Of a DNA stretch of 64,000 nt, positions 2,841 to 63,336 are shown one piece after another. The notes under the pieces were generated by a model. It worked only from the letters and a program-made list of their open reading frames with translations. It was not told the DNA's origin and did no database searches. The position numbers and the translations under genes are program-made. The stretch is taken from positions 4,966 to 68,965 of the IMG/VR virus record IMGVR_UViG_3300042938_001476; one strand, given 5' to 3'. The DNA comes from a virus. Every line of letters starts with the position of its first letter. Positions within the stretch are counted from its first letter, which is position 1.

Positions 2841-2844
2841 TGTT

Positions 2845-3798
2845 ATGAGTTTTTTAGGCAGAAAATTAATGCTTGGGAATATTAGTGATGGATTGACATG
2901 GGCTTTTACTTTAATGCCTGGAAATATTAATAGTTGGAGTTCAGTTACATACGGAGGAGGTAGATTTGTTGCTGTTAGTAACGGTTCAGAGAAAGTAGCA
3001 TATAGTGATGATGGAGTGACATGGCTTTTTACTACAATACCACTTCCAACCAGCGTTTATAATTGGACATCAGTTACATACGGAGGAGGCAGATTTGTTG
3101 CTGTTAGTTCTTTAACAGGTTCTTCGTATGGCTCACAATGGGCAGCATATAGTGATGATGGAGTGACATGGTTTACTACTGTATTTCCATTTTATACAGA
3201 TTGGAGTTCAGTTACATACGGAGGAGGTAGATTTGTTGCTGTTAGTAGCGACTCAAGTGGCTCAGGCGCAGCAGCATATAGTGATGATGGAGTGACATGG
3301 TTTGCTACTACAATGCCAAGTTATACAAATTGGGGTCCAGTTACATACGGAGGAGGTAGATTTGTTGCTGTTAGTTATCCCAACTCAAACGTGGCAGCAT
3401 ATAGTGATGATGGAGTGACATGGTTTGCTACTACAATGCCGATTTCTACCGGCTGGAGATCAGTTACATACGGAGGAGGTAGATTTGTTGCTGTTAATAT
3501 ACTCTTAAACGCATCAGCATATAGTGATGATGGAGTGACATGGGTTAATACCATATTTTTATTTCCATTTTCTATCGGTTATAATTGGAAACCAATTACA
3601 TACGGAGGAGGTAGATTTGTTGTTGTTGGTACTTTAAATGGTTTTGTGGCTGGATCAAACGTGGCAGTATATAGTGATGCTGGAGTGTCATGGCTTTCTA
3701 CTACAATGCCAAATTATAACTGGACATCAGCTACATACGGAGAAGGTAGATTTGTTGCTGTTAGTTCCTCCTCCAACGCGGTAGCATATACAATATAA
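2845..3798 (+). CDS. BNR/Asp-box repeat beta-propeller, putative receptor-binding protein
   Basis: About 7 repeats of WxSVTYGGGRFVAVS...AAYSDDGVTW (SxDxGxTW Asp-box); in-frame ATG at 2845 just after the upstream stop at 2840. Confidence 0.75.
   Translation: MSFLGRKLMLGNISDGLTWAFTLMPGNINSWSSVTYGGGRFVAVSNGSEKVAYSDDGVTWLFTTIPLPTSVYNWTSVTYGGGRFVAVSSLTGSSYGSQWAAYSDDGVTWFTTVFPFYTDWSSVTYGGGRFVAVSSDSSGSGAAAYSDDGVTWFATTMPSYTNWGPVTYGGGRFVAVSYPNSNVAAYSDDGVTWFATTMPISTGWRSVTYGGGRFVAVNILLNASAYSDDGVTWVNTIFLFPFSIGYNWKPITYGGGRFVVVGTLNGFVAGSNVAVYSDAGVSWLSTTMPNYNWTSATYGEGRFVAVSSSSNAVAYTI
2935..3765 (+). repeat. in-frame coding tandem repeats (~125-140 bp unit)
   Basis: cagttacatacggaggaggtagatttgttgctgtta and gcatatagtgatgatggagtgacatgg recur nearly identically 6-7 times with variable inter-block segments. 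Confidence 0.9.
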
Positions 3799-3863
3799 TT
3801 TTTAAATAGCAATCCATCTAAATAGTGCTATACATCAATCAATAATCGTTTAACAATAAATCT

Positions 3864-6337: not shown

Positions 6338-9300
6338 ATGGGACTTTTTGATGATATTCTTGAAGAGGAGGGAATGGTTGAGCCGCCCCCTCAAAAACAA
6401 AGCGCAATCCGCAAGGGGGGATTATTTGATGACATTCTTGAAGAAGAAGGAATGCTTGCAGAAGATCAATCGCAATTTGATGCAGATTACTTTACTCCAA
6501 AACCACTAAAGACGGAGAAGAAAGAATTACCAGAAGGACAAAGCGTATTTCGCCAGGTAGCAGATGTTCCGCTTGGCGTTGCCCGTGGTGGCGTTATTGG
6601 CATCAAGATGATGACTGATATTTTGGGTGCTGATAATCCAGTGTCAAAATCATTGGCCGGAGTTGAGGGATACATGGCTGATTTGATGTCCGCTCAAGCC
6701 AAGGAAGACCAACAAGAGATCGCTCGCATTATGAAGGATGCCGAGGATAAAGGATTTGGAGAGCAAGTTAAAGCTGGCATTAAAGCATTCAGCATCGCTC
6801 CAGTTGACATTATGTCTCAAGCGTTGGGAACAATGGCTCCGGTTCTTGCTACTGGTCTTGCTGGAGGTGCTGCTAAACTTGGAGCATTGGGTATTAGGGG
6901 GCTTCAACTTGGTGTTGGTGCTGGAATGGGTGCTGGCATGATTAAAGGTGAGATTTACAATGAGGTTAAAAACGAACTCATTAACTCTGGAACTCCAGAG
7001 GAAGTTGCAGAAAAAGCTGCTGTTGATGCTCAAGCATACGGAGGAAAAAACCTGGATCAGATTCTACTTGGAGCAGGACTTGGCGCAGCATCTACTTTGG
7101 GGGCTGAAGGAATTATTACCAGAATCTTGACCAAGCAAGGCAAGGCTTCTACCGCAGGACTTATATCTCGCACATTGAAGGGTGGCATTACAGAAGCTAT
7201 TCCAGAAGGTTTTCAAGCTGCACAAGAACAACTTGCTAAAAATGTCGCGTTGCAGAGGGAGGGTTTTGATGTTGATCCATCCCGTGGTGTTGTTGCTGCC
7301 GCTACAATGGAAGCTATAGCTGGTGCGCCATTAGGAGGAATTGCTGGTGCTGTTGAACGACCAGCTAAAGTTAAGACCCTTGAAGAGGAAAAATTTGAGC
7401 AGACCAATGAGATTGCAAGAAAGGTTGCTGAAAGCGGTGCGCCACTTACTGCATCCGCGCTTCAAGACAAAGCTGCCGCTAATCTAAATCAAGATGAGCT
7501 TGCAAGAAAACTTGACGAAGAACTTTCCCTTACTGCCGTAAAGCCAACCGCAGCATCTCCAACGGCAATCCCTACAAAGGATGATTATGTTGCAAGGTAT
7601 TCTGCTATTGCACAGGCAGCGCCAGAAGAGATTACAAGAGCAGAACAATCATTCACAAACGAACTTGCCACTGCTGATACAGAAGAGAAGCGTATCAACG
7701 CACAGAACGCATTGGACGCAATCAAAGAAGTAAAGGCAGTTGGGATTACTCCTGCTGCACAACCCGTAACTCCGGTTACACAACAACCAACAATAGATGC
7801 CGCTCAAGAAATCATCCAGCAACAAGGCGTTCGTCAAGAACCTCAAGACGGAACTCAAGTCGGGGCGACCCCAGAAGCAAGCGTTAGCGATAGCGTACTC
7901 GGTGCAGAAGGAATCCAAGAAGAAGGGCAAGTAGATTCTACAATATTTGATTTGCAGTCTGTCGCGAATAACACGGCAACTCGCGAACAGATTTCGTCTC
8001 TGTCGCTTTCTGGACTTGTAGACATCCGTAAGGGGCAAGCCATCATCAATGAGGACGGAGAGGGCATCCTGGCGCAAGCACAAGCCCCATTGCCAAAGCT
8101 CACGCCAGAAGAAAGAGCCGCTGAAGTTGAGGCTGCTCCAGCCACTCCGATTCCATCAGAACCTATCATTGGAGAAATTCCGCAAACTTCTCCGATAGTA
8201 GGCGAGGCTATTACAGAGACTACTCCAGTAGAACAAGTTGCGCCGCAAAAAACAATAACAGTATTTCATGCAACAGACACGCAACCTAAATCTGGTCAAA
8301 AATCTGGATACTATCCAGGCACATATACCGGAATAGATGAGGGTTTTGTTAAAGATTTTGGTAAGAACCTATTTTCAACTCAAGTTGATATAGATAAAAT
8401 ATACAAAGTAAGCAATGAAAGTGACTCGCAACAACTTAAAAAGGATGCGCGAAACGCTGGATTTGATGTTCGTAATGCAAACGGAAATGGAGAAACACAA
8501 TATCTTATATCAAATGGATATGAGGCAATACAGAGAGGGAAGGAAATAATTTTATTGTCTCCAGAAAAGTATAATTTTAGTAAAATCCAGAAACAACCAG
8601 CAGAACCTATCATCTTGGAAAAACCACAAACTTCCGAGATAGTAGGCGCTGAAACTCCTGCCATTGTTGAACAAGAACAAGTTGTGCCAGTAGAAAGAGC
8701 AATAGATGTAGCGAGAAAAACAAACTTTGCCGCAGCCACAACGAGGGAAGAAGCTGGAGATATAGGAAGAAATCTTGCGAGCCAAGACCCTAATTTACCT
8801 CCATTACCTCCACAGCAATTTGAAGTTCTTGAAAGTATATCAAATTTCCAAAACAGAAAGGGTTACAATCCAGATGTATTAACTGAAGAGTTGATTAATG
8901 AGGCTCGAAATAACGGATTTATTACTGGAAAGCAACTTGGCAAAATTAAATTTACTGAAACCGGAAGAAATCAATTAAGGGAATGGTCTGATCAAGCAAG
9001 AGAGAGAAGCCTTGCACAAAGCGCATTGAGCGACGAGATTAGCGATATTGCCGTATCTCAATGGGATGCAGCAAATGATCCAACTTCAGCGGCAGCAATG
9101 GCGGCACAAACCGCTACACCTCCCGCACCAGTCACCGAGCAAGCTGCACCAGCAGAAGCTCCCGCGCCAGAGGTTGCGCCTATCCAGCGTGATGTCACGA
9201 AGCCAGAGCAGATGACTCCAGGGGAGCGTGGAATTCAAGGTCACAAATTAGTTATTGAACAAGCAAGGCAAGACCTTGAGTTAGCAAAAACAGGTCAAAC

Positions 9301-12300
9301 ATTTGGATTTAGCGGAGGTCAAACTTACAAATCAAAAGCTGCTGCTATTAAAGATACTAAAAATACTTTTGAACGGGTGTCTCAACCCACTGAGGCGGAC
9401 ATTAAAAGAGGTGCATCAGATCACTACGGGGAAATAAATAGGGCTGTTTCAGACAGCAGGCCAGTCTCTATAGATGCCGTTGAAGTTTACGGAGTTACTC
9501 TTCCAGAAGGATATGCCAAGCAAGGAGACCTATATGTTTACCAACCCACCCCCGCAGTATCGGAAACAATAACAGAGCCAGCACAAGCCGCCGCTCCAGC
9601 ACAACCTACAGAGTTTGGATTTGTTAAAGACATTGATAGCACAAGAGAAAATATTAAGAAAAACCTAATTCGTTTTGCATCCGGCATGAGTGGATTGAGT
9701 GATATGCGTCGAGGATCATACGCTCGCGCTGGACATAGGAATTATGGCGTTGGTGCTGTTGCTGGTCTTCTTTCAAAGAATACAACAAATGAACTTGCAG
9801 ACCGAATTATTAATTTAGATGTCCATACATTTATTGATTCTGGAGCATTTGGTCATTTCATAAAAGAACAAAAATTAAAACTTGAAGGCAAAACACTTCC
9901 TCCATTAAATTTTGATAAAATACTTGCTAAATATGATTTAATTATTGATGAAATAAATAATGCAAATTCCGTTGAAAGAGATGATTATCCTCGTCCATTA
10001 ATTGTCACTCCTGACAAATTGGGAGATCAAAATGAATCACTTAATTTAACTGAAAAATACAAAAATTGGATTGCTGCAAGAATTGAATTCAATGATGCAA
10101 TACCAATTATTCCAATTCCACTTGGTAAATTAACTTTGCCGCAAGCGTATAACAGAATAGTTGAAATACTTAAAACAAATACCATTGGAGCAGAAATTAA
10201 TCCTAATAAGTTTATAGTTGGTATCCCATCAAATGCAACCGCTGTAAGTAAGGAAGACCTTGCTAATTTTTTACAAGAAACAAAACATCCTCGTATTCAT
10301 TTTCTTGGAGCGGCAGCAGATAGTAAAATCGCTCCACTTATTGATGTTGTGGCTAAAGTTTCTCCAGACACATTAGTAACCGCTGATGCAAGTCCAGTTA
10401 GGTCAAAAATTGCTAATGCTAAAAAGGAAGGGAAAACCAGAGATGCAGCAACTTTTGATGCACTATATCAAGAAGATGATCCTAATGTCATATTGGATTC
10501 AATAGGTAAAAATCCAGAGCAATTAACTCCAACAGAGCCGGAAATTATTGCTCCAACAACTCAACCGGAAAGCATCGCAGTAGGCAACCGCATCAAGTTT
10601 GACAATAGTCCACAGACCTACACCATCGAAGAAGTAATCCCGCAGACGGCAAAAGATCAAGAGTTGGAAGAGAAATACTACTCTGTGAAGAACGAGCGAA
10701 CAGGCGAGGTTCAGGTAGTAGAGGAAAGAGATTTGAAGAAAGTTGGCGGGAAAAAAGTGCGGAAGATGGCGGTTGCAACAAAACTTTCTGATTCTTTAGA
10801 TTCTGGTGAATTCAATTCCGCACAAGCATTAGTTGATCAAGGAACAACAATGGATCGCGAAACATTTATTCGTTCCATTACTCCATCCGCAACACAACGA
10901 GCGACCACAATTCATACAAGACTTGAAAAAGATGGTGTAATTTCAAAAGAAGAGTTTACTGATGGAATGGGACTTGTCTATGGAGACGGACGAGGGGCAG
11001 CATCGTCATATCTTGGAGGTCAGTCTTATGAGCCATTCCCGCCTGCTGGTTTTACTCCAGACTACACTGGTGATCGTGTAGAGGGAAAGGGAGATGCGAT
11101 TGATGGCAAGTTTAGCACAATTCTTAATACATTTGTTCTTAATGTAGTTGATCCACAAACTCGCGCATTCATTGTAAAAGACATAGCAAACCTGCTTCAA
11201 AATGGAGGAAGGGCTGTATTTGTTACCCGTGGATCAGATGTTGCAAACTCAAAAGCCTTGGTATCATTTGCTCCGCTTGAGCGCATTCAAAGATCAGAAG
11301 GTAAGCTAACTTATCAAAAAGGATTCACTCAATCAGAACTGATCAAGTATCTTAAAGAAACGCTTGGTGATGGATTTTCTGTTAAAGGTTTGCGCGGAGG
11401 AACCGCAAGCGATATTCGTGTGGAGGTAATTAAGAATACTGATGCGGAATTGAATAATCCTCCAATAACTCAAGACATTCGGCTGCAAGCGGTAGAACTT
11501 AAAAACGAAGAGATAGTAACGCCAATCCCAGAAGCTAATCGCTACACATACGAAGAAGCTGTAAGGCTGGTTGACTCATACTTCGACAAAGAAGGAATAC
11601 CGGAAGGCGTAGTTATTGTAAACAATACTACCGATAAAGACCTTGAGATGAAGGCAGGGTATTTCGTGAATCGTGGGCAGATCGTTATCAACCTCGCATA
11701 TATCGCTAAAGGTGAGAACCTATCTGACATTATCTCTCACGAACTTGGTCACTACATTTTTGGTGATCCCCAGTTCCAAGCTGACTTTAAATCATTCTGG
11801 GAAGCAATGACACCAGAAGAGCAGGCTGAAGCTGATAGGCTAATAAACCAATTTTACAACAAAGAGACTGGTGCGGTGCAGATGGAAGAGAAGCAAGTCC
11901 GTGCATTCTTGCAGTTGATCCAGGATAGCAATGCTCAACCGAAGTGGAGGCAACTTCTGGACAGCATTAAGCGTTGGATTAACGAGAAACTTGGAACTAA
12001 CTTCCAAGTAACTGACGGAGGCGCATTGGCAGTCCTTGCTGCCGCGCACAAGCGATTCAAGAGTGGTGAGCGCATCATCCGTGAGATTGATTCTGGTGTG
12101 CTTAAAATGGCAGCAGAGCCTCGCCGTGAGCAAGTAGCAGGCAAACCGCGTGGAGACATTATCACAACTCCAGAAGGTATCATCGAGCAAACCAACGAAG
12201 TATTGCGTAACAAGTTCTTCGACGGATCGGTAGTCTCTGACGAGAACACAAGTGCTGCATGGGACTACATAGAGCAATTACTGGATATTAAGTCCGGTGC

Positions 12301-15300
12301 AGCTTATGATCTTGCGGGACAGATTAACAATGTTGTAGATCAAGAAACGAATTCTAAAACAAGAATGGGAGCGGGATTGTTTTCTGTATCATTGACTAAC
12401 TACGCTGCAAAACTGTCGGCTCAAGGTGATAACGCAATGATCTCCTATCTTGTTCGTAGAAATAATAGGATGCCAACCGATAATCGCGGAGGCACTGCAA
12501 CAGATGCCGGAAGGGTCTTGAGAGGCAAACGGGAATACGACATTGATGGATATCACACCATAATGACTGAACATGAGTCTAAAGTTGAGAGAACAGCGGC
12601 TACACTATTTGGAACAGGTAAGCCAAGCAAACAACAAGTTGCTGCCGTTGATGCTGCTATTGAAGCATCAGAAGACACATCTATTGGAAATCCAGAGGAT
12701 GTTGCTGGCGAAGTTGAAAAGGTAGAGAAGAGAACTGGTCGAAAAGTCATCAAGAAAATTGAAGACAAGATCAAAGAATCAACTGAACCAAAGAAAGAAG
12801 AGCTTCTTATCTCATTTGAGAATTTAGATGCAGATAGAAAAATCAAAGGAATTACGCTTAAATACAATCCACAGAAGGTAAATGTAGCAAAAAACATTAA
12901 AGATTTTATTATCGGCAAGATGGTTGACTATAGGAAAACGCTTATTAACCAAGGCGCAAGCGGACTTGAATCTACATTCTGGCAGACGATGAGTGACAAT
13001 GAGAATAAGCCTGGCCCACTTGGGGAAATTGATCAGGCGCAAAACAACGAACTTGCAAAGATTGTTCAGAAGACGCTGATTGATCTTGGACTCAAAGGTG
13101 AACCCCCTAATACCAAGATGACAGACATTGAGAAGGTTGCATCTATTTTGAACAAGCAGAAGTTGAGTGATGAGAAAAGACTTGAAGCTGATAGCAGGAT
13201 TGTTGAGGAAATTGAACGCAGAAGAGAAAGTGATCTTGCGTCTGGTTATACGCCGGAAGTTGTAAACGCAAAGTATGACATTATTCTTGATGCGTGGAAT
13301 CAATCAATGAGCAGACAGCTTAATATGCCTGTTAGCGACAATATGCTTCAGCGTCTTATTAGTTCCGAACTAAAAGAGCAAAACATAAATATTAGCAATT
13401 TAATTGAAGAGGTTGACGGAAAAGTAGTAGTAAAAACAAAACAAGGAATTGTTGATTCTATTATTCGCAAAATTTACAAGGTTTCTAAAGAGTCTGAAAC
13501 TGGAATTGAGATGGACGAAAACTACGATGGTCTTAAAGGCTATCTTGAGCAAACGCTGGATAATATGTATGCGCGGCAAATTGAAAAGAAGAATGCCGCA
13601 TATGCAAAGCGCCAGGCTAAAATATCATTGCGTAACAATGTTGAAGGGCAGGCTCAGTCAATCATCGATCAACTTGCCGATCAACTGTCCGATACTCCAG
13701 CATTCCCAGAAAAACAAGAAAATCAAGTAAAGGCTATTGTTCAACAAGACCTAAGGCAGAGGCCGGACATGAAGCGCAAGCAACCATGGACGAGTCAACT
13801 CACAGCTAAACTCATGCAGGCAGGCGTAAGTGAAGTACAGGCTCAAACAATCTCTGATCTTGTCTGGAGACAGCATGAGATCAAGACAATGGATCGTGAG
13901 CTTAAAGAGCTTGAGACGGCAGCAGAGAAGGGTTCTCTTGCAGTCATTATCCAACGCATTAAAGATACACCGCTTGAGGATCAACAGAAGCCGGAATGGA
14001 TGCAGGGCGTAATTCGTGAATACCTGATTGAAGCAGGGTTATCAAGCCAAGCCGCAGATACCGCTGCAAGGCTATATGAGAGCGTTATTGCTGAAAGGTT
14101 CGCAGAAGCCAAGCAGAAGGCATTTGAAGACACTCTGGCTAAGTCTGCGCCATGGAATAACTATCTTTCCAGAAACGCTCAACTTGGTAAGAATGCGCTG
14201 AAGAAAATTCAAGATGCAATCAGAACCGGAGTCCTTGATCCAACCCAAACCACAGAAGGTATTATTGCAAAAGAAAATGGGTGGTCTGGATTCAGTAAGG
14301 AACAACTTACGCGCATTGTTCAGTTGGATGGAATTCTTTATGATAAGAATTCGGATCAAGTTACTAAAGCGGAAGCGATGTCTGAACTTAACAAGATTAT
14401 CGTTAAGGCAAAGATGCCAGTTAGGTTTAAGGATGCAATCTCTGCTTTTTATGTCGGTCAAGCATTGATGGGTATTCCAACATTCACCGTTAACATTGCT
14501 TCACCTACATTTTTTGCAATCCGCAACTTTTCTATAGATATTGCTAAATATGCTGTTACCGATCCCAAAATGATTCCGGTTGCGTTTCAGAGTTTTATTA
14601 ACTCATTTAAGAGTCTATATGACAACACTATGTATGCATTTAAAAATCAGATTTATATGTCTGGTGAAATTGAATACATGCAAGGTCAAAATATCCTTAG
14701 TGAGTTATTTGACAAGGGTAAGGCTCAGTGGGCTAAAGGTGACTATGCCAACGGAATGGGGAATATGCTTGTTGGAACAAGCCAAATTACTGGCAGAATC
14801 CTTTCATCCCTTGACCAGGGCGCAATTGAAATGATGCAAAGTCAAAACATTACAAGATATGTAATTGAGGCAATGTCTGGTAACAAAAAAATCTCAAAAG
14901 ATAAACGCAGTGAAATCGTTAATATTGCAATTAGTGGGCGCAGGAAAATTAAACAAGACCTAATAGCATCTGGAATGGCTCCTGATAGGGCTGGAGTTCT
15001 TGCTGAATTAAAGGTTAGAGATGAACTAATGGCATCACTTTCTGAATTTGGAATTAAAGGAACTGATGTCCTCAATGCCTCTATAAACGATGCGCTTCAA
15101 TCCGTTGGACGCAATCGCGCCATTACGATAAATTCACTTACTAAAGAACAAAACAATTTGAGGGATGCGGGAATTCTGTCTGGTATTCCAATTGGATTCC
15201 TTGAGGGTGTTGCTCAATGGGCAAATAAAGGAAATCAATCTCAACAGGTTTTTGCTAAAATGATTTATGGATTTGCACTTGTTCCAGCCCGTGTATTTTC

Positions 15301-16441
15301 AACCGCATTATGGTTTAGCCCCATTGGATTTGTTAGGCTTGGAGTTGATGCAGCAATAAAAAGGGGAGGTGGCGAGTCCCGTTATGCCTTATCACTTGCA
15401 ACAGAATTTCAACAAAAGCAAAGACTTATTGAAGCTATAGCCGGAACTGCTCTTTTAGTTGGGTTAAGTTCTTTGCTTTCAAGTTCAACTGATGACGATG
15501 AAGAAAAGCCATTTAAAATTGTAGTTACAGGAAATGGCCCAGATTACAATACAGACAGGCAATACCATGATTCTTGGCACAAGAAATATAAACCACACAC
15601 AACTCACATTATTATAGGTGGACTAAACATCCCAATTAATATTGGACGAGGTGGAGAGGCTATATCAATTCCCCTTATATTTTTGGGCGCTCAAGATGAT
15701 GCAAGAATTAAGGAGAAGCTGAATCAAGCAAGGAAATCTCCGGCAGATTTAGAAATGGCAGCGGAAGTTTTAGGTTCAGCATTTTACTCTTTCTCTAATA
15801 GAGGCCCGTTTGCTGCATTTACAAAGCCTTTGTTTGATGCAAAGAAGCCAGACAAAGTTGTTCCTAATTTGGTTAGCCAAATAGGATACTTTGGAAAAAC
15901 ATTTATTCCAATTGTTGGAACTTCTCTTGCAAGAAATATATCTGATTTTATTAATGACCCAATTGATAAGTCCTCCATTCAAGGTGCTATTTATTCTAAT
16001 ATGCCAATTGTTGGGCCTATGATTGGAACGAAGGCACTTAATGCTTTTGGGCAACCAATCAGAGCAGACGATTGGGGCGATAGATTATTTAAACTTGGCG
16101 CTCCTGTTGTAATGTCGTTTCCTAAAAACACACCTGAAAATGAGCTTAATGAATTAGTTCTTAAAAAAGGCGATGGCCCACCAATTCCAACCAGAATAAA
16201 TGCTCAAAAGAAATTTGAGGAGCCGCTAACGGATAAAGAGTTTGAGATATATGTCCGTGAGTATGGGAGGGTTGTATCTGACAAGATGTTTAAAAATCGA
16301 AAGAGGCTTGAAGATATGCAGGCAAAGAACTATACTAAAGAGCTTGATAAATATGTTAACGGATATTCAATTGATGGAGTTGAAATTCCAGGGGCTTCCG
16401 ATATGGCTGCTCGCGCAGTAAAAAGATCAAGGAACGAATGA
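6338..16441 (+). CDS. giant polyvalent internal virion/ejection protein with ART-like, TGT/DpdA-like, SAM-methyltransferase and HExxH zincin modules
   Basis: 3367-aa ORF. Gly/Ala-rich hydrophobic N-region; VFHAT..GYEAI..EIILL (~8250-8575); FIDSGAF/TPDKLGD/IHFLG (~9650-10440); YGDGRG/FVLNVV/TYQKGF (~10880-11440); HELGH (11738-11752); helical C-terminal half. Confidence 0.8.
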   Translation: MGLFDDILEEEGMVEPPPQKQSAIRKGGLFDDILEEEGMLAEDQSQFDADYFTPKPLKTEKKELPEGQSVFRQVADVPLGVARGGVIGIKMMTDILGADNPVSKSLAGVEGYMADLMSAQAKEDQQEIARIMKDAEDKGFGEQVKAGIKAFSIAPVDIMSQALGTMAPVLATGLAGGAAKLGALGIRGLQLGVGAGMGAGMIKGEIYNEVKNELINSGTPEEVAEKAAVDAQAYGGKNLDQILLGAGLGAASTLGAEGIITRILTKQGKASTAGLISRTLKGGITEAIPEGFQAAQEQLAKNVALQREGFDVDPSRGVVAAATMEAIAGAPLGGIAGAVERPAKVKTLEEEKFEQTNEIARKVAESGAPLTASALQDKAAANLNQDELARKLDEELSLTAVKPTAASPTAIPTKDDYVARYSAIAQAAPEEITRAEQSFTNELATADTEEKRINAQNALDAIKEVKAVGITPAAQPVTPVTQQPTIDAAQEIIQQQGVRQEPQDGTQVGATPEASVSDSVLGAEGIQEEGQVDSTIFDLQSVANNTATREQISSLSLSGLVDIRKGQAIINEDGEGILAQAQAPLPKLTPEERAAEVEAAPATPIPSEPIIGEIPQTSPIVGEAITETTPVEQVAPQKTITVFHATDTQPKSGQKSGYYPGTYTGIDEGFVKDFGKNLFSTQVDIDKIYKVSNESDSQQLKKDARNAGFDVRNANGNGETQYLISNGYEAIQRGKEIILLSPEKYNFSKIQKQPAEPIILEKPQTSEIVGAETPAIVEQEQVVPVERAIDVARKTNFAAATTREEAGDIGRNLASQDPNLPPLPPQQFEVLESISNFQNRKGYNPDVLTEELINEARNNGFITGKQLGKIKFTETGRNQLREWSDQARERSLAQSALSDEISDIAVSQWDAANDPTSAAAMAAQTATPPAPVTEQAAPAEAPAPEVAPIQRDVTKPEQMTPGERGIQGHKLVIEQARQDLELAKTGQTFGFSGGQTYKSKAAAIKDTKNTFERVSQPTEADIKRGASDHYGEINRAVSDSRPVSIDAVEVYGVTLPEGYAKQGDLYVYQPTPAVSETITEPAQAAAPAQPTEFGFVKDIDSTRENIKKNLIRFASGMSGLSDMRRGSYARAGHRNYGVGAVAGLLSKNTTNELADRIINLDVHTFIDSGAFGHFIKEQKLKLEGKTLPPLNFDKILAKYDLIIDEINNANSVERDDYPRPLIVTPDKLGDQNESLNLTEKYKNWIAARIEFNDAIPIIPIPLGKLTLPQAYNRIVEILKTNTIGAEINPNKFIVGIPSNATAVSKEDLANFLQETKHPRIHFLGAAADSKIAPLIDVVAKVSPDTLVTADASPVRSKIANAKKEGKTRDAATFDALYQEDDPNVILDSIGKNPEQLTPTEPEIIAPTTQPESIAVGNRIKFDNSPQTYTIEEVIPQTAKDQELEEKYYSVKNERTGEVQVVEERDLKKVGGKKVRKMAVATKLSDSLDSGEFNSAQALVDQGTTMDRETFIRSITPSATQRATTIHTRLEKDGVISKEEFTDGMGLVYGDGRGAASSYLGGQSYEPFPPAGFTPDYTGDRVEGKGDAIDGKFSTILNTFVLNVVDPQTRAFIVKDIANLLQNGGRAVFVTRGSDVANSKALVSFAPLERIQRSEGKLTYQKGFTQSELIKYLKETLGDGFSVKGLRGGTASDIRVEVIKNTDAELNNPPITQDIRLQAVELKNEEIVTPIPEANRYTYEEAVRLVDSYFDKEGIPEGVVIVNNTTDKDLEMKAGYFVNRGQIVINLAYIAKGENLSDIISHELGHYIFGDPQFQADFKSFWEAMTPEEQAEADRLINQFYNKETGAVQMEEKQVRAFLQLIQDSNAQPKWRQLLDSIKRWINEKLGTNFQVTDGGALAVLAAAHKRFKSGERIIREIDSGVLKMAAEPRREQVAGKPRGDIITTPEGIIEQTNEVLRNKFFDGSVVSDENTSAAWDYIEQLLDIKSGAAYDLAGQINNVVDQETNSKTRMGAGLFSVSLTNYAAKLSAQGDNAMISYLVRRNNRMPTDNRGGTATDAGRVLRGKREYDIDGYHTIMTEHESKVERTAATLFGTGKPSKQQVAAVDAAIEASEDTSIGNPEDVAGEVEKVEKRTGRKVIKKIEDKIKESTEPKKEELLISFENLDADRKIKGITLKYNPQKVNVAKNIKDFIIGKMVDYRKTLINQGASGLESTFWQTMSDNENKPGPLGEIDQAQNNELAKIVQKTLIDLGLKGEPPNTKMTDIEKVASILNKQKLSDEKRLEADSRIVEEIERRRESDLASGYTPEVVNAKYDIILDAWNQSMSRQLNMPVSDNMLQRLISSELKEQNINISNLIEEVDGKVVVKTKQGIVDSIIRKIYKVSKESETGIEMDENYDGLKGYLEQTLDNMYARQIEKKNAAYAKRQAKISLRNNVEGQAQSIIDQLADQLSDTPAFPEKQENQVKAIVQQDLRQRPDMKRKQPWTSQLTAKLMQAGVSEVQAQTISDLVWRQHEIKTMDRELKELETAAEKGSLAVIIQRIKDTPLEDQQKPEWMQGVIREYLIEAGLSSQAADTAARLYESVIAERFAEAKQKAFEDTLAKSAPWNNYLSRNAQLGKNALKKIQDAIRTGVLDPTQTTEGIIAKENGWSGFSKEQLTRIVQLDGILYDKNSDQVTKAEAMSELNKIIVKAKMPVRFKDAISAFYVGQALMGIPTFTVNIASPTFFAIRNFSIDIAKYAVTDPKMIPVAFQSFINSFKSLYDNTMYAFKNQIYMSGEIEYMQGQNILSELFDKGKAQWAKGDYANGMGNMLVGTSQITGRILSSLDQGAIEMMQSQNITRYVIEAMSGNKKISKDKRSEIVNIAISGRRKIKQDLIASGMAPDRAGVLAELKVRDELMASLSEFGIKGTDVLNASINDALQSVGRNRAITINSLTKEQNNLRDAGILSGIPIGFLEGVAQWANKGNQSQQVFAKMIYGFALVPARVFSTALWFSPIGFVRLGVDAAIKRGGGESRYALSLATEFQQKQRLIEAIAGTALLVGLSSLLSSSTDDDEEKPFKIVVTGNGPDYNTDRQYHDSWHKKYKPHTTHIIIGGLNIPINIGRGGEAISIPLIFLGAQDDARIKEKLNQARKSPADLEMAAEVLGSAFYSFSNRGPFAAFTKPLFDAKKPDKVVPNLVSQIGYFGKTFIPIVGTSLARNISDFINDPIDKSSIQGAIYSNMPIVGPMIGTKALNAFGQPIRADDWGDRLFKLGAPVVMSFPKNTPENELNELVLKKGDGPPIPTRINAQKKFEEPLTDKEFEIYVREYGRVVSDKMFKNRKRLEDMQAKNYTKELDKYVNGYSIDGVEIPGASDMAARAVKRSRNE

Positions 16442-53076: not shown

Positions 53077-53114
53077 GATTTTTTAATGTGCCTTGATTGG
53101 CGATTCATGACATA

Positions 53115-53129
53115 GCGTAAAGCGTGCCA
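53115..53129 (-). promoter_or_regulatory. sigma54-type -24/-12 promoter
   Basis: Minus strand TGGCACG-CTTT-ACGC (GG-N10-GC). Confidence 0.55.
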
Positions 53130-53168
53130 ACTATCGGACAAGGGGGAAAGAGGGGAAAACTATGCACA

Positions 53169-53183
53169 GCATGATTCATGCCA
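53169..53183 (-). promoter_or_regulatory. sigma54-type -24/-12 promoter
   Basis: Minus strand TGGCATG-AATC-ATGC. Confidence 0.6.
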
Positions 53184-53298
53184 TGGCATTTATTGCCGCT
53201 TTTATAGGTAATTCTTGCCGCACCAGGCAGTTCTTGCCTAACGGAAAAGAGGGGTTTTTTGTAAGGCGAGTAATGCCAGGGGTTTGCGAAGAATCGCA

Positions 53299-53313
53299 GC
53301 AAGAAGCGTGCCA
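53299..53313 (-). promoter_or_regulatory. sigma54-type -24/-12 promoter, perfect consensus
   Basis: Minus strand TGGCACG-CTTC-TTGC. Confidence 0.75.
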
Positions 53314-53363
53314 AGATTTGAGGACGGGTGAGAAAGGGAAGGGTGAAGAGATTGCATGGATGC

Positions 53364-53387
53364 ATCGCTATATCGCTATATCGCTAT
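53364..53387. repeat. 8-bp tandem repeat x3
   Basis: atcgctat three times in tandem. Confidence 0.9.
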
Positions 53388-53825
53388 ACAGCGATACTTG
53401 CCATATCGCGTATGGCATAGCTATAATTGCAAGTCTGCTTTTTGCATAGTGCCATTTCCTGTATATGGCGATACCCGATTTATTCCCGCGATGCATGCCA
53501 TGCACAGCGCCCACAGCATGACAACGCCCCACAGCGCCCCGTATTTTCCAGCCATAGTATGACAGCGCCCATGCAATCAAAGCCCGTTACAAGCCATTCT
53601 CGAGAGATTCATTCCACTATCTATTCTTGATGTTATCGGAAGTTATATTGATAGTCAACGAGTTACAATAGGTAGGTAGTATAATCATGCGCCTGGCAAT
53701 CAACGGTGAGTATCGATGCGTATAGCATGGCGTATGGCATAGAGCAACACAGGGCAGGCGGCGGACGGAGCAACACAGAGCGACACAGAGCAGGAGCAGG
53801 AGCAGCGGGGGGGGCGGAGCAGGCA

Positions 53826-53863
53826 CACAGCGAGGCACAGCGAGGCACAGCGGCACAGCGAGG
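53826..53863. repeat. 10-bp tandem repeat in a T-poor tract
   Basis: cacagcgagg x2, cacagcgg, cacagcgagg. Confidence 0.9.
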
Positions 53864-54249
53864 GGGGCGGCAGGGGTGGCAGGGGACGGGGGGCGCAGCG
53901 TGGAGCGACACACGGGAAACAAGCCCCTACCTAAAAATATAAAAATAAAAATATAAAATATATCTTTACCTAAACCACTCTCCCTCAATCAGAAGGCAAA
54001 TTCCCCTATGCTTTTTTGCCCTAAAAATGCCTATATCCTGTTGAGATATGAGAGTGTAATGTTTGCGCTACACTAAGCTGTGGTAATGTCGCATATACGA
54101 CGAGTTAAGTGCGTTATTCTTGCTTAATGCGTCAAATAAGACACTTTACTCCCCTAACGATGATTTATATGTCATCACCATAAAAACGCATCTAACGCCA
54201 CCCTGGAGCAACCGTGCTATATCCCAGTAGAGTAGCGTGGGTATATATT

Positions 54250-54552
54250 TTATGAGTTGGTATTGGTGGTATCTGATTTGCTCTTTCTGATAACATAAGT
54301 CATATCGATGCCCTGTCCCTGTAGAAAGCTGAGAATTATTTCTTGGTCTGTTTCCAGTTCTTCGATTTTATCAATTAACCCCTCTGTGTCTTCCATGAGT
54401 TCTGCGTTCTGTTCTTTGAGGGATTGGATGACATCTGCTAAGAACTTTATTCCGGTTGTGATGGCTGCTGCTATTTTGACTGGATCACCCTTACCCTTGG
54501 CGAGGGACTTGATAGCTCTGTCTAATTCTGACATGACTGGGTTGGGTGTCAT
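54250..54552 (-). CDS. hypothetical coiled-coil protein
   Basis: 100 aa, last gene of the minus-strand operon. Confidence 0.6.
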   Translation of the reverse strand: MTPNPVMSELDRAIKSLAKGKGDPVKIAAAITTGIKFLADVIQSLKEQNAELMEDTEGLIDKIEELETDQEIILSFLQGQGIDMTYVIRKSKSDTTNTNS

Positions 54553-55990: not shown

Positions 55991-56187
55991 TTGTGTGTAA
56001 TAACTTTAAGGATAAAAATGCATCCAAGTAATGATATCAGTATACCAAAATTAACCAACAATGGAGACAATACCAACCACCAACTCCAGTCAATGAACCC
56101 TGTCAGCTTGAGTGTGATGAATATAAGCGTTAGTAGATTTGAGAACGTCCCCCCCAATGATATCGTAGTTTTGTTTGCCATGATCAA
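55987..56187 (-). CDS. small phage membrane protein
   Basis: LTLIFITLKLTGFIDWSWWLVLSPL conserved phage TM motif. Confidence 0.75.
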   Translation of the reverse strand: MIMANKTTISLGGTFSNLLTLIFITLKLTGFIDWSWWLVLSPLLVNFGILISLLGCIFILKVITHK

Positions 56188-56195
56188 GTGTGCCT

Positions 56196-56369
56196 TTACT
56201 TGCCTTTGATTTTATATTCTGACTTATTGAAACTCCAGTCAATTTCATCATAGTTGTCCCAGTATTTCTTTGTGATTGGCCTGGGTTTATCACCCTTACC
56301 AGCACCAACTGACTGTGATTTTAGTTCGTTGATTCGCGCTTTTCTATCGTCGTTGTTTTTTAGTTTCAT
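56196..56369 (-). CDS. small conserved phage protein
   Basis: GAGKGDKPRP...YWDNYDEIDW; ATG at 56369 preferred over the TTG at 56501. Confidence 0.65.
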   Translation of the reverse strand: MKLKNNDDRKARINELKSQSVGAGKGDKPRPITKKYWDNYDEIDWSFNKSEYKIKGK

Positions 56370-56379
56370 GTTTTCGTTG

Positions 56380-56925
56380 AAAGTTTCGCAGGAACGGGTA
56401 TGCATCCCCTTTTCAGACATCTGGTTCCCAAGGTTATGAGCCTCCTTCGACTCCCAGACCTCGATGTGGTGTTCGACCGAGAAATCCCAGTCCATCAACA
56501 CTCATCCGTATATCATGTCTGCCTGCTAAATTAGTCTCCTCAACCATAGCGTCCTGTGGTTTCATCTGTTGATTCAGATTCGGGCGATGCCAGCGATAAG
56601 ACTGACAGAGCGGTAACCGGAAGTAGTTTTGATACGGGTTGGGGCGTTAGTCCCAATCATGGTTTCAGTGACGGCCCCATGTAGTGCCGCTTGGCTTTTT
56701 GTGCCATTTAAGTGAATCGCTTCAAAGCTTGCGACTGGCTGCATGACTCCATGCTTCCCGTAAATATCAAAGATCATTACCACTGATTTGCATTGCTGGC
56801 TCAATGGTCAAGCCTCTGTAGGATTCCTGCCTCTGGCAGAGATCAAGGTTGTCGTTCGCCCACTTATGGAAATGTTGTCGTTAGTTAACATTTCTGTAAT
56901 GTTAACGATCAGCGACTCCAAGAAA
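56380..56925 (-). ncRNA. candidate large structured non-coding RNA
   Basis: More than 12 nested stems; the imperfect stems checked pair by G-U on the minus strand only; no convincing ORF. Confidence 0.6.
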
Positions 56926-57003
56926 ATTGTTTGTTTGTCATATTTTTATTGGTTGGTGAAAGTTGATGTATTCAGTATAAATACCAATGCGTGAAAGTAA
57001 AGT

Positions 57004-58275
57004 TTATTGTTGAACAATAGCTTCTTCCAACCTTGCCATGTGTTTGATGAACTTAATGGGAATCATTGGCGTTGTCCCGTTTCGGTTGTGCGTTACAGAA
57101 AGAATGTATGCGTAGGGGTCATCCGATTCCTCTACTGGCATGATCTTTGTCAGGCTATCGCAGTCCATCTCAAATGTCCGGCTCTCGCGGATTGTGTTGT
57201 CCTCATTGAGTTGAGCAAGGAGAACTACACATACCTTCAACTCTTTCGCTATGATCTTCGTCATACGACTAATTTCGGCAACCTGCCTCTCTCTATTTTC
57301 CTTTTGATTGCTTGGAGTTATGAGTTGCGCGTAGTCCAACATAATAATTTCGCACTTGTTCTCGACAACCAACCTTCTTGCCCTGGCTCGAAACTGGTTC
57401 ACCGTCATTGATGCTTCGTCAACAATATGGATTGGAGCCTTCATCCCTTGGCCCATAAAGTTAGACACCTTGGCAAAGTCCGCTCTGTTTAGCTTGCCGT
57501 CACGAAGATCATTCATTCCAATCTGTGCATGGCAGGATGTGATCTTGTCTACAAGCTCATCTGCGCCCATCTCAAGCGAGATGATGCCAATCGGGACTCC
57601 CTTGTCTATAGCTGGCGTTGTGACCATCTGTAGGGCTGCTGTGGTCTTTCCTTGCTTGGCTCTGCCAGCGATGATGTGGACTGTCTGTGGTCTAAACCCT
57701 CTTGTTGCCATATTCCATCTTGGGAAACATGAATCGTGTCCTCGATTGATAGCTCCTCCGGTCTTAGCAGCCTCCTCCCAAGCTGTGATCCTGCGGTTGA
57801 GTACATCGCTAATGTGAACGGACTCAGACTTAGTAGTCATCATTCCGGTAATTTCGCGGCTTGCATCTTCCTTGATTTCCTCTGGGTCTTTGGATCGATC
57901 AAGTGCATCCGCTGCCATACGCTTTGCGGCAAAGTGTATCTTGCGGCGAAGGTAGCAATTTGAGATCGTCTTGAAATACTCATCCCAGTTGGCGGATGTG
58001 TAGACAACTGTGTATATGTGGGTGATGTAGTGTTCACCACCGATTCCCTCAAGGAGGTTGGCTGCTCTCAATTCCGAGGTAATTGTTAACAAGTCTATAG
58101 GTTTCTTGTCAAAATACATCTTGAGGAGAGTTGTCCAAATGTCTTGGTGTGCTGGATATGTAAAGTGTTCCAGTGTAATAATATCAGCAATTTTGCCAAT
58201 GATGCGTGTGTCTTGTATGCAGGAACAAAGCAATCCTTGTTCCGCCTCTGTGTCGGATGGTAGTGTGTTTTCCAT
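57004..58275 (-). CDS. dnaB: replicative DNA helicase, DnaB-like
   Basis: N-domain EAEQGLL...PIDLLTI; IIAGRAKQGKT, SLEM, LDYAQL, LAQLN, HNRNG. Confidence 0.92.
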   Translation of the reverse strand: MENTLPSDTEAEQGLLCSCIQDTRIIGKIADIITLEHFTYPAHQDIWTTLLKMYFDKKPIDLLTITSELRAANLLEGIGGEHYITHIYTVVYTSANWDEYFKTISNCYLRRKIHFAAKRMAADALDRSKDPEEIKEDASREITGMMTTKSESVHISDVLNRRITAWEEAAKTGGAINRGHDSCFPRWNMATRGFRPQTVHIIAGRAKQGKTTAALQMVTTPAIDKGVPIGIISLEMGADELVDKITSCHAQIGMNDLRDGKLNRADFAKVSNFMGQGMKAPIHIVDEASMTVNQFRARARRLVVENKCEIIMLDYAQLITPSNQKENRERQVAEISRMTKIIAKELKVCVVLLAQLNEDNTIRESRTFEMDCDSLTKIMPVEESDDPYAYILSVTHNRNGTTPMIPIKFIKHMARLEEAIVQQ

Positions 58276-62583: not shown

Positions 62584-63336
62584 TTATTTTTTTATGTAAT
62601 AGAATTGTGTTGGTGTTTTTTTTATCAATAAATTAATTCTTGATGGATCAATATTGTAATGTATAGCTGCTTGTTTTCTGCTTTTAAATACACCATGTGG
62701 TGTCATTATTTCTTTACCTAAAGTTTTGTTATTTTTTTTACCTTTTCTTCTTTTGTTACTTTCAATAACTGCAATTCTTGTTTTTTCAGATATCTTTTTT
62801 CCTTTATTTTTTTCTGAAATTTTTCTTTTTGTTTCTTCGGAGTGAATAACTTTTTTTCCTTTTAATGAGTTGCTTATTTTTGCTCTTGTTTCTTCTGAGT
62901 GCTTTTTCCCTTTCATTGGAGGGTTCTTAAAAAGTGATTCGCTAATTTTTCTTCTATGCTCTACTGAAAATGATTGTGAATTTGAGAATGGATTATTGAT
63001 TCCCTTCATTGATTCACTTCTCATTTTTTTGCAAAACTCATATCTCCTTGAATTATATTGAACGCAATTTCTTGTTTGCATCCAGCAAAATGCTTTTGCC
63101 ATTTTATAACATCTTTGTGAATTTAACCCATTCCTAAAAAGAAAAATCTTATGCAATAACTTATGCGCTACAAAATGCTGCCTTGGAGTAAATAAAACAG
63201 TTTTTTTGTTTTTACCAAATATGCTTTGAGGAAAAATGTGATGTTTTTCCATCATCCCATTTTCATTTGTTTCACATGATGTTTTAATCAACAAAATATA
63301 TTTTTTGCAGTACTTACGCCAAAGTTTATATTGCAT
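62584..63336 (-). CDS. HNH homing endonuclease with NUMOD3 repeats
   Basis: EKHHIFP, TPRQHFVAHKLL, KKHSEETRAKIS and HSEETKRKIS; very A+T-rich relative to flanks. Confidence 0.88.
   Translation of the reverse strand: MQYKLWRKYCKKYILLIKTSCETNENGMMEKHHIFPQSIFGKNKKTVLFTPRQHFVAHKLLHKIFLFRNGLNSQRCYKMAKAFCWMQTRNCVQYNSRRYEFCKKMRSESMKGINNPFSNSQSFSVEHRRKISESLFKNPPMKGKKHSEETRAKISNSLKGKKVIHSEETKRKISEKNKGKKISEKTRIAVIESNKRRKGKKNNKTLGKEIMTPHGVFKSRKQAAIHYNIDPSRINLLIKKTPTQFYYIKK

Follow-up and report, generated by a model that had tools for sequence, protein, structure and literature searches.

An array of exchangeable structured RNA modules behind a phage dnaB gene, with two well-supported new RNA families

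Results

The DNA behind dnaB is non-coding

The window analysed here, 64,000 nucleotides (nt) in length, comprises bases 4966-68965 of a 68,965-base virus record (IMGVR_UViG_3300042938_001476) that is rated 100% complete, and the element in question is an array of structured RNA modules on its minus strand, located behind the gene for a dnaB-like replicative helicase (57004-58275, minus strand; Pfam DnaB_C, 8.8e-48, and DnaB, 1e-23; PHROG 19); this gene borders the array upstream. On the other side, the nearest gene is a conserved open reading frame (ORF) of 57 amino acids (aa) at 56196-56369 (minus strand; MKLKNNDDRKARINELK..., starting MKLKNNDDRK from the ATG at 56369), which matches neither Pfam nor PHROG and is present from this ATG in the related loci L002, L003, L005, L008, L009, L010 and L217 (L numbers denote loci compared with the window). 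The DNA runs containing the array stretch, 16 of which have 0.58 or more of the sampled words, carry the label of lake water metagenomes.

Since the next conserved gene starts at 56369 and the longer ORFs are broken in relatives, the ~635 nt behind dnaB are non-coding, including positions 56380-56925 for which a structured RNA had originally been predicted. A GTG-started, 101-aa form of the 57-aa ORF, extending to 56501 and over module D, is one of these broken frames. The other is a 76-aa ORF (56574-56804) that is open in the window, where one frame has few stops, as a protein-coding region or a broken or recoded gene would have it, an explanation to which we assign next to no probability: in relatives the ORF is interrupted by indels and stops, 30 of the 38 distinct module-B sequences carry stops in all three sense frames, the ORFs differ from one relative to the next, and the substitutions are compensatory within helices, not codon-like. 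That the 76-aa ORF is not conserved as a protein, which the original prediction had implied, is thereby borne out, and the stretch between dnaB and the 57-aa ORF is non-coding, structured RNA on the minus strand.

Modules recur in many orders among related phages

A DnaB with 88-99% identity to that of the window is encoded on nine viral contigs, and alignment of the DNA behind dnaB revealed that window positions 56533-56627, corresponding to the segment termed module C below, are exactly missing in L002, L003 and L005. The junction of this deletion is occupied by a tRNA-Met gene in L009 (between modules B and C-D) and by a tRNA-Ala gene in L010 (between modules G and C-D), and L008 carries an insertion of ~200 nt elsewhere in the array. 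Exact-motif scans of the viral collection returned 58 stretches with a 19-mer of the array's second module and 49 with a gapped pattern of its last module; a 17-mer scan gave 25 loci, several of which match the window in the 17-mer alone, so that they were not used, and of the loci found by a gapped-pattern scan (7 N) the covariance model (CM) R1 accepted just 5 beyond those known. BLAST of the region against 83 loci resolved it into four separate blocks, 56778-56846 (module A), 56643-56770 (module B), 56527-56630 (module C) and 56388-56439 (the end of module D), which are independent of each other and differently ordered (A, for example, lies ~100 nt after B in L037). Each block has its own closing helix, and A/U-rich, UUUA-like linkers separate the blocks. 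The stretch is an array of stem-closed modules (a G fragment, A, B, C and D), not one 550-nt RNA.

Module types E, F and G occur in the arrays of relatives, giving at least seven types overall, and a tally of marker motifs distinguished at least 25 module orders (as loci overlap contigs and their flanks cut them off, the count is one of orders and not of phages). Examples are B-E, D-B-E, B-E-A, B-D, F-B, C-E-B, C-B-E-D, G-B-tRNAMet-C-D, G-tRNAAla-C-D and four tRNAs followed by D, next to G-A-B-C-D in the window; the four tRNAs, in L180, lie directly upstream of D with a linker of 4 nt. A second group of phages is distant, the proteins flanking the array being 32% and 56% identical to those of the window and the rest giving no BLAST match, and yet module B is 76-85% identical in these phages.

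In this second group (L036-L093) the arrays are always preceded by an ORF of 73-75 aa (MTTNNTFESRIICEGTEV...LELEGILD) that belongs to no Pfam family and of which diverged copies lie upstream of D in L181, L183 and L215. Pfam has no family for the group's convergent gene, 75-aa ORF or HNH-like ORF beside the arrays either. Module E (UGGUCGGCGG-N-UGAG, a variable hairpin and AAUAAUNCNGAGUUAACCCGGCCNCC; for example L036 1114-1196) was recovered as 20 distinct sequences in 63 instances, several loci of which may derive from one contig; it does not occur in the window, and its bases at N seem to covary. A motif that precedes many arrays (TGATCTTTGAWA) has three matches with at most one mismatch in the window, which 31 of 100 shuffles equalled, so that it constitutes no repeated signal there.

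The original prediction had taken the region for a single RNA of ~550 nt enclosed by a long-range helix, GGGCGA/TCGCCC. All of the complementary segments on which it drew are present in the sequence at the positions reported, and several of them recur below as stems of individual modules. The long-range helix itself did not survive comparison: its GGGCGA lies in the module G fragment and its 3' partner TCGCCC in module C, which is missing from L002, L003 and L005, and L008 has no complementary 5' partner. Folded as one minus-strand RNA, the 546 nt reach -163.8 kcal/mol, compared to -151.4 +/- 7.2 for shuffled sequences (z -1.72; 4 of 100 shuffles equal), and the plus strand has a z of -1.03. 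The minimum free energies (MFE) of single modules on the minus strand, each against 200 shuffles, give z values of -2.65 for B (equalled by 3/200) and -2.36 for D (4/200), as well as -1.62 for the leader that precedes the modules, -0.94 for A and -0.82 for C. The expectation that the RNA folds more stably than shuffled sequence thus holds for B and D taken singly, which lie beyond most shuffles, and is borderline for the region as a whole.

A single large RNA of several domains, comparable to GOLLD or ROOL and with peripheral domains swapped among relatives, would agree with the location of all modules on one strand behind a single promoter-like site and with no terminator-like site between them, with the long-range pairs in the MFE structure of the whole region, and with an RNA-library contig that spans several modules. 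We nevertheless regard it as unlikely, given that the sole long-range helix proposed is not conserved, that the modules are found in many subsets and in reversed or different orders (B-E-A, D-B-E, B-D, C-E-B), that C is cleanly absent in the nearest relatives, that tRNAs lie between modules and that B occurs alone in one locus (L319). Moreover, no large-RNA family of Rfam matches even at E up to 10, and the z of the whole region is only -1.72.

Module B is a conserved multi-helix fold

Module B (~135 nt; 56629-56767, minus strand) consists of a helix P1 that closes P2, P3, P4, a probable H-type pseudoknot (CGGC/GCCG crossed with CAUGG/CCAUG) and P6, and is present as a single copy in the window, scoring 146 bits with CM R1. 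In a MAFFT alignment of 38 distinct B sequences RNAalifold called 24 pairs, 9 of them with compensatory changes, and 97.7% of the cells of the curated structure are paired, compared to 19-37% after a shift of the partners by 1-3 columns. A similar picture emerged from the model-fitted alignment of 45 distinct sequences (97.6% of cells paired), with changes on both sides at 16 of 35 pairs and a covariation score that was reached by none of 500 shuffles; P4 and most of P5 are invariant. The closing stem, TACGGG/CCCGTA in the window, was already among the pairings of the original prediction, and it appears as ACUGGG/CCCAGU and GAGGCG/CGCCUC in relatives.

A metagenome scan for B yielded 17 stretches only, several of them from contigs already in the set, and added the GC-rich variants L316 and L328. 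In GC-rich B both sides have changed in P1 (GAGGCG/CGCCUC), P2 (GCCUG/CAGGC), P3 (CGGG/CCCG), the pseudoknot (CACGG/CCGUG) and P6 (UCCGG/CCGGA), and the loops GAGU, GAGCYUKGAAA and GUGACGC are unchanged in these variants. A lone GC-rich B is found on a 164-kb metagenome contig (L319, 1-1425), where it is followed by a run of seven U and a hairpin and lies ~110 nt before an SSB gene (Pfam SSB, 1.9e-36). A further stem-closed stretch (CCGGCGGGG...CCCCGUCGG) is seen just upstream of this copy.

Module D contains a covarying pseudoknot

Module D (~140-145 nt; 56385-56529, minus strand) is built from P1 (GCAGG/CCUGC), P2 (CAGACAU/AUGUCUG), P3 (GAUG/CAUC) with a variable hairpin, a pseudoknot and a 3' hairpin (GGG..CCC), and is likewise a single copy in the window (139.9 bits with CM R2). 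In the pseudoknot, which is arranged around a hairpin, helix a (GAGGU/ACCUU) is crossed by helix b (CUGG/CCAG). Among 18 sequences of the window subtype, to which the following figures refer, 93.0% of 660 cells are paired, compared to 36-44% when partners are slid, both sides have changed at 20 of 37 pairs, and no shuffle out of 500 reached the covariation score. Pairing is complete (100%) in the crossing helices (73-77:132-136 and 78-81:143-146), each of which contains two covarying pairs, and all 18 sequences have a G.U at the base of helix a. P1 and P2, which the original prediction had correctly recognised as the closure of a 3' domain (GCAGG-CAGACAT/ATGTCTG..CCTGC), are also 100% paired, with both-sided change at 2 of 6 P2 pairs. 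A second subtype of D, comprising 17 sequences by reading, keeps the strand order with GGGA/UCCC and GGGC/GCCC. Together with the compensatory changes in module B, these data make modules B and D well-supported new RNA families.

A short form of D is found in L201 (852-933): P1, P2 and the 3' hairpin are retained within its 82 nt, P3 and the pseudoknot are missing, and its score with CM R2 is 48 bits. An exact-pattern scan of contigs of bacterial species representatives gave 97 stretches, a count that we estimate to be about the chance number for 17 fixed bases; no R2 score above 23 bits was obtained in the 80 that were fetched, and these exact-pattern matches thus brought up no bacterial copy of D.

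Within D, the original prediction had singled out a hairpin, AGG-CTCATAA-CCT, as a mimic of a tRNA-Met anticodon arm, and had proposed a decoy against anticodon nucleases. The 3-bp arms of this hairpin are used otherwise, by a covarying GAGUC/GGCUC hairpin and by pseudoknot helix a, and the CUCAUAA loop varies, reading CUCGUAA, UUCAUAA, UCUAUAA, CCGCAA or GGCGUAA in the 18 aligned homologues; no tRNA-like feature was detected in the window by ARAGORN or by the Rfam tRNA model. Because the tRNA-Met-like arm is unconserved and clashes with covarying helices, the window sequence lends the decoy no support, and the mimic itself is not supported either.

We also compared D with known self-cleaving folds. 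Ribozymes of the hepatitis delta virus (HDV) type have a P1 of 6-7 bp, a catalytic C in J4/2 and a P1.1 formed by L3 with the bases that follow P1, and the core of hammerhead ribozymes consists of CUGAUGA and GAAA around three stems. The crossing strand order of D (a, b, hairpin, a', b') and the invariant basal G.U are those of an HDV-like ribozyme, but helix a has 5 bp, the joiner between a' and b' reads GGGAA, GGAAA or GGUAA without a conserved C, and the hairpin loops hold no CC that could pair in P1.1 with the GG after a'. As for the hammerhead, D has CUGAUGAG or CGGAUGAG followed by CCACAUCGA, not by GAAA, and there is no Rfam match; D was accepted as neither ribozyme. The broader possibility that the modules are self-cleaving ribozymes or processing signals cutting a polycistronic transcript, for instance to free neighbouring RNAs or tRNAs, draws on the same HDV-like strand order and G.U, on the wealth of invariant unpaired bases in B and D and on the tRNAs in some arrays. 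In view of the missing features just listed and of the failure of any Rfam ribozyme model to match, we hold this to be very unlikely.

Modules A, C and G and the leader

Module C (~98 nt; 56530-56627, minus strand) has in its 3' half a hairpin AUCUG..CAGAU and a 7-bp stem with a GACG loop, and among 9 sequences 7 of 11 predicted pairs in this half show compensatory changes. The pairing TGTCAG/CTGGCA of the original prediction falls within this module, and is one of the stems backed by relatives. Module A (~69 nt; 56778-56846, minus strand) is made of a hairpin CUGCC-aga-GGCAG and a hairpin ACCAUUGA...UCAGUGGU, and copies 93-94% identical are located elsewhere in the array, after B-E, in L037, L044, L045, L047 and others. 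With seven distinct sequences and a single informative pair (seen as U-A, U.G and C-G), structural support for A is weak; the predicted stem ACCATTGA/TCAGTGGT belongs to it and contains this pair. Of module G the window retains the 5' part only, a truncated head at 56850-56883 (minus strand; ACAUUUCCAUAAGUGGGCGAACG...), and longer G modules, running on into two more hairpins, are present in L007, L008, L009 and L010. Collecting homologues and examining their covariation, as had been suggested at the outset, thus uncovered compensatory pairs in B, D and the 3' half of C.

The leader between dnaB and the first module begins with a candidate sigma-70-like promoter directly behind the dnaB stop (TTTACT, 16 nt, TATACT; 56974-57001, minus strand; 9/12 in a consensus scan, a pattern match only), both hexamers of which are kept in the close relatives L002-L007. 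It is followed before the first module by a 10-codon mini-ORF, MTNKQFSWSR*, read from the sequence (56908-56940, minus strand), whose ATG, frame and TGA are kept in L003 (MTLKLFPWSR), L008 (MTNKLFPWSR) and L009 (MTNKDFPWSR), and which is absent from L010; it may encode a leader peptide, or its apparent conservation may lie at the RNA level. Next comes the 9-bp hairpin gttaacatt/aatgttaac (56884-56906, minus strand) of the original prediction, which is indeed in the sequence and shows no covariation, the ~27-nt stretch that holds it being absent from L008, L009 and L010. On the plus strand, the leader (56847-56925) can form a long hairpin of -23.9 kcal/mol (z -3.92, 0 of 200 shuffles equal; minus strand z -1.62), and it includes a partial duplication (ACATT.. 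/ ACATTTCC).

The array matches no described RNA family

The covariance models of Rfam 15 gave no match at gathering scores in the whole window, and at E up to 10 the 1-kb surroundings of the array (56100-57100) gave five matches, which score no higher than 18.8 bits, lie far below gathering and do not include a tRNA. A scan of 20 related loci returned three tRNA matches and nothing else, and a scan of 7 further loci returned tRNAs and weak chance matches only. ARAGORN detected no tRNA or transfer-messenger RNA (tmRNA) gene in the window, and blastn against 50,697 deposited phage records found no match to the array region. The search for GOLLD, ROOL or another known family therefore came back empty, and the original prediction was right in kind: there is a structured phage RNA on the minus strand that Rfam does not describe. 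According to the available part of its text, a survey of the IMG/VR collection reported 8,495 unnamed structured-RNA candidates, tRNA-like ones included (Fremin and Bhatt 2023, PMC10690425). These candidates stem from the same viral collection as the array loci, and modules B or D could be among them; the available text describes no module arrays, and six contig identifiers of array loci are absent from the searchable part of the supplement, which leaves three files outside.

Strand, expression and neighbours

Among the proposed pairs, cells with G.U are more numerous than cells with A.C (43 vs 8 in D, 28 vs 11 in B), which fits an RNA read from the minus strand and confirms what the original prediction had concluded from the wobble pairs of a few stems. 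A DNA-level element such as a replication origin or packaging site, with the hairpins forming in DNA, would be in keeping with the proximity of the array to dnaB in the window and of B to ssb in L319. We deem such an element highly improbable, considering that G.U-type pairs are tolerated on one strand only, that the folds are pseudoknotted and multi-helical, that B is found in RNA libraries and that a better origin candidate is located at ~53360-53960 (iteron-like repeats and an A/T-rich stretch).

Metatranscriptome contigs from four runs of three studies, on lake water and sediment, contain B wholly or partly at no less than 90% identity. Two contigs of one study hold the full B (56622-56776, 7 differences) and two others part of it, and one 554-nt RNA-library contig carries both B and the end of D, separated by 266 other letters. 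The flanks of the RNA-library contigs resemble module types of relatives. We take uncovered parts of the array, contig stops and an adapter at a contig end near 56394 not to be evidence, as contigs break where relatives differ.

With regard to possible targets, a search of the phage's own genome for antisense partners of 11 conserved loop or junction motifs gave nothing beyond chance-level matches of three 8-nt motifs. Among the loci compared, no consistent class of gene lies downstream of B or D. Both in the window group and in L217, D directly precedes the same 57-aa or a 48-aa ORF, and B lies upstream of the SSB gene in L319, an arrangement that would suit a cis-acting leader (riboswitch or long 5' untranslated region) regulating or stabilising the mRNA of small downstream ORFs. 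In most other loci, however, what comes after D is a further module, the 3' end of a convergently oriented gene or unrelated ORFs, and in the second phage group B extends to the stop codon of a convergent gene, such that we give little credence to a cis-acting role.

Other features of the window

The candidate origin belongs to a stretch of ~1.2 kb without a credible gene (53080-54250), which has three copies of an iteron-like repeat (ATCGCTAT; 53364-53388), GCGCTGT-type repeats near 53520-53580, a C/T-rich low-complexity block with a G+C content of up to 0.685 in the region 53700-53900 and an A/T-rich run at 53932-53962; from these sequence features it could be a replication origin. A gap of 1,023 nt without an ORF of at least 60 aa (2841-3863) lies behind a gene resembling those of collagen-repeat tail fibres, and contains neither a module of the array families nor an Rfam match. 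On the plus strand, 6338-16441 is a single ORF of 3,367 aa without a Pfam family, and on the minus strand an ORF with NUMOD3 motifs and a PHROG homing-endonuclease match (62584-63336) adjoins a glycosyltransferase gene.

Discussion

Starting from the folds demonstrated here, their conservation, their strand and their behaviour as cassettes, we consider it reasonably probable that the array is a small minus-strand operon of discrete structured RNAs that evolution handles as cassettes. Transcription would probably start at the sigma-70-like promoter behind dnaB, and the transcript would run through the leader, the G fragment and modules A, B, C and D into the small ORFs. Between phages, modules have been gained, lost and re-ordered at the A/U linkers, and tRNA genes can take the same slots. 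By analogy with tRNA precursors, host endonucleases may cut the transcript at the linkers, and the stable small RNAs thus released would act separately in trans. Where a tRNA lies between modules or directly before one (L009, L010 and L180), its maturation must separate the flanking modules.

Several observations weigh against such an operon. The RNA-library data are assembled contigs, which show the presence of B, not RNA ends or abundance, and DNA carry-over is possible. A minus-strand scan found no terminator-like site between or after the modules, so a single long transcript is equally compatible with the sequence, and the folding energy of the whole region is merely borderline. Among 68 window ORFs Pfam identified no RNA-handling protein and hence none that would suggest itself as a partner. 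The window has no tRNA, a tRNA is near D in only 4 of the 52 other loci scanned, and all 52 loci from the second phage group lack one, which makes the association with tRNA clusters an occasional one. Diversity is modest, as B falls into about three clades, many of its compensatory cells stem from few events and the alignment of 45 sequences is model-fitted, and covariation supports modules A and G little or not at all.

With their many invariant unpaired bases, a multi-helix junction and a pseudoknot, B and D have the traits of RNAs that recognise a specific protein or small ligand, or that are catalytic, rather than of simple antisense RNAs. A bolder form of the operon proposal, which we put forward as a speculation with rather low odds, is that B and D are two new functional RNA classes, aptamers for ligands or proteins or else new ribozymes, that lake phages trade together with tRNAs as cassettes to manipulate or disarm the host. 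If so, B and D might soak up a host signalling molecule or sequester a defence protein, and the array would correspond, in RNA, to the islands of protein-coding accessory genes in phages.

Phage annotation rests almost wholly on proteins and tRNAs, and here a 600-nt 'empty' stretch hides no fewer than two RNA folds whose intricacy equals that of riboswitch aptamers or small ribozymes and which are conserved across phages with almost no protein similarity. Swappable cassettes that at times sit in tRNA slots suggest a class of phage small RNAs that is general and has yet to be studied. Being compact (about 135-145 nt), and with alignments and covariance models at hand, B and D are open to direct in vitro tests.

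Among known systems, HDV-like ribozymes, including the minimal 'theta' ribozymes, occur in phage tRNA arrays. Akin to these, D has the strand order a, b, hairpin, a', b' and a basal G.U in helix a; it differs from them in the 5-bp length of this helix, in having no joiner C and no P1.1 loop CC, and in the three further helices around the pseudoknot. GOLLD and ROOL often neighbour tRNAs, and in GOLLD, one half of which is variable, a tRNA can be included. Both are ornate structured RNAs of unknown function that are borne by phages and were recognised in lake and other metagenome data, as the available part of the source has it (PMC12286853). As opposed to these RNAs of 500-800 nt, the array is conserved by modules of 65-145 nt, and no overall architecture is kept.

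To our knowledge, the only textbook precedent is the pair RNAC and RNAD of phage T4, which is still without an assigned function. RNAC and RNAD (species 1 and 2) are small non-coding RNAs encoded in the tRNA region of T4, and their biological role is given as unknown in the available part of the source (PMC3014915). The likeness lies in phage small RNAs beside tRNA genes, an arrangement seen here in the relatives L009, L010 and L180. Unlike the T4 RNAs, the array region matches none of the deposited phage records at the sensitivity of blastn, the array of the window has no tRNA, and at least seven module types are re-ordered between phages. By this analogy, our best reading is that the array would be of one kind with RNAC and RNAD, its nearest precedent.

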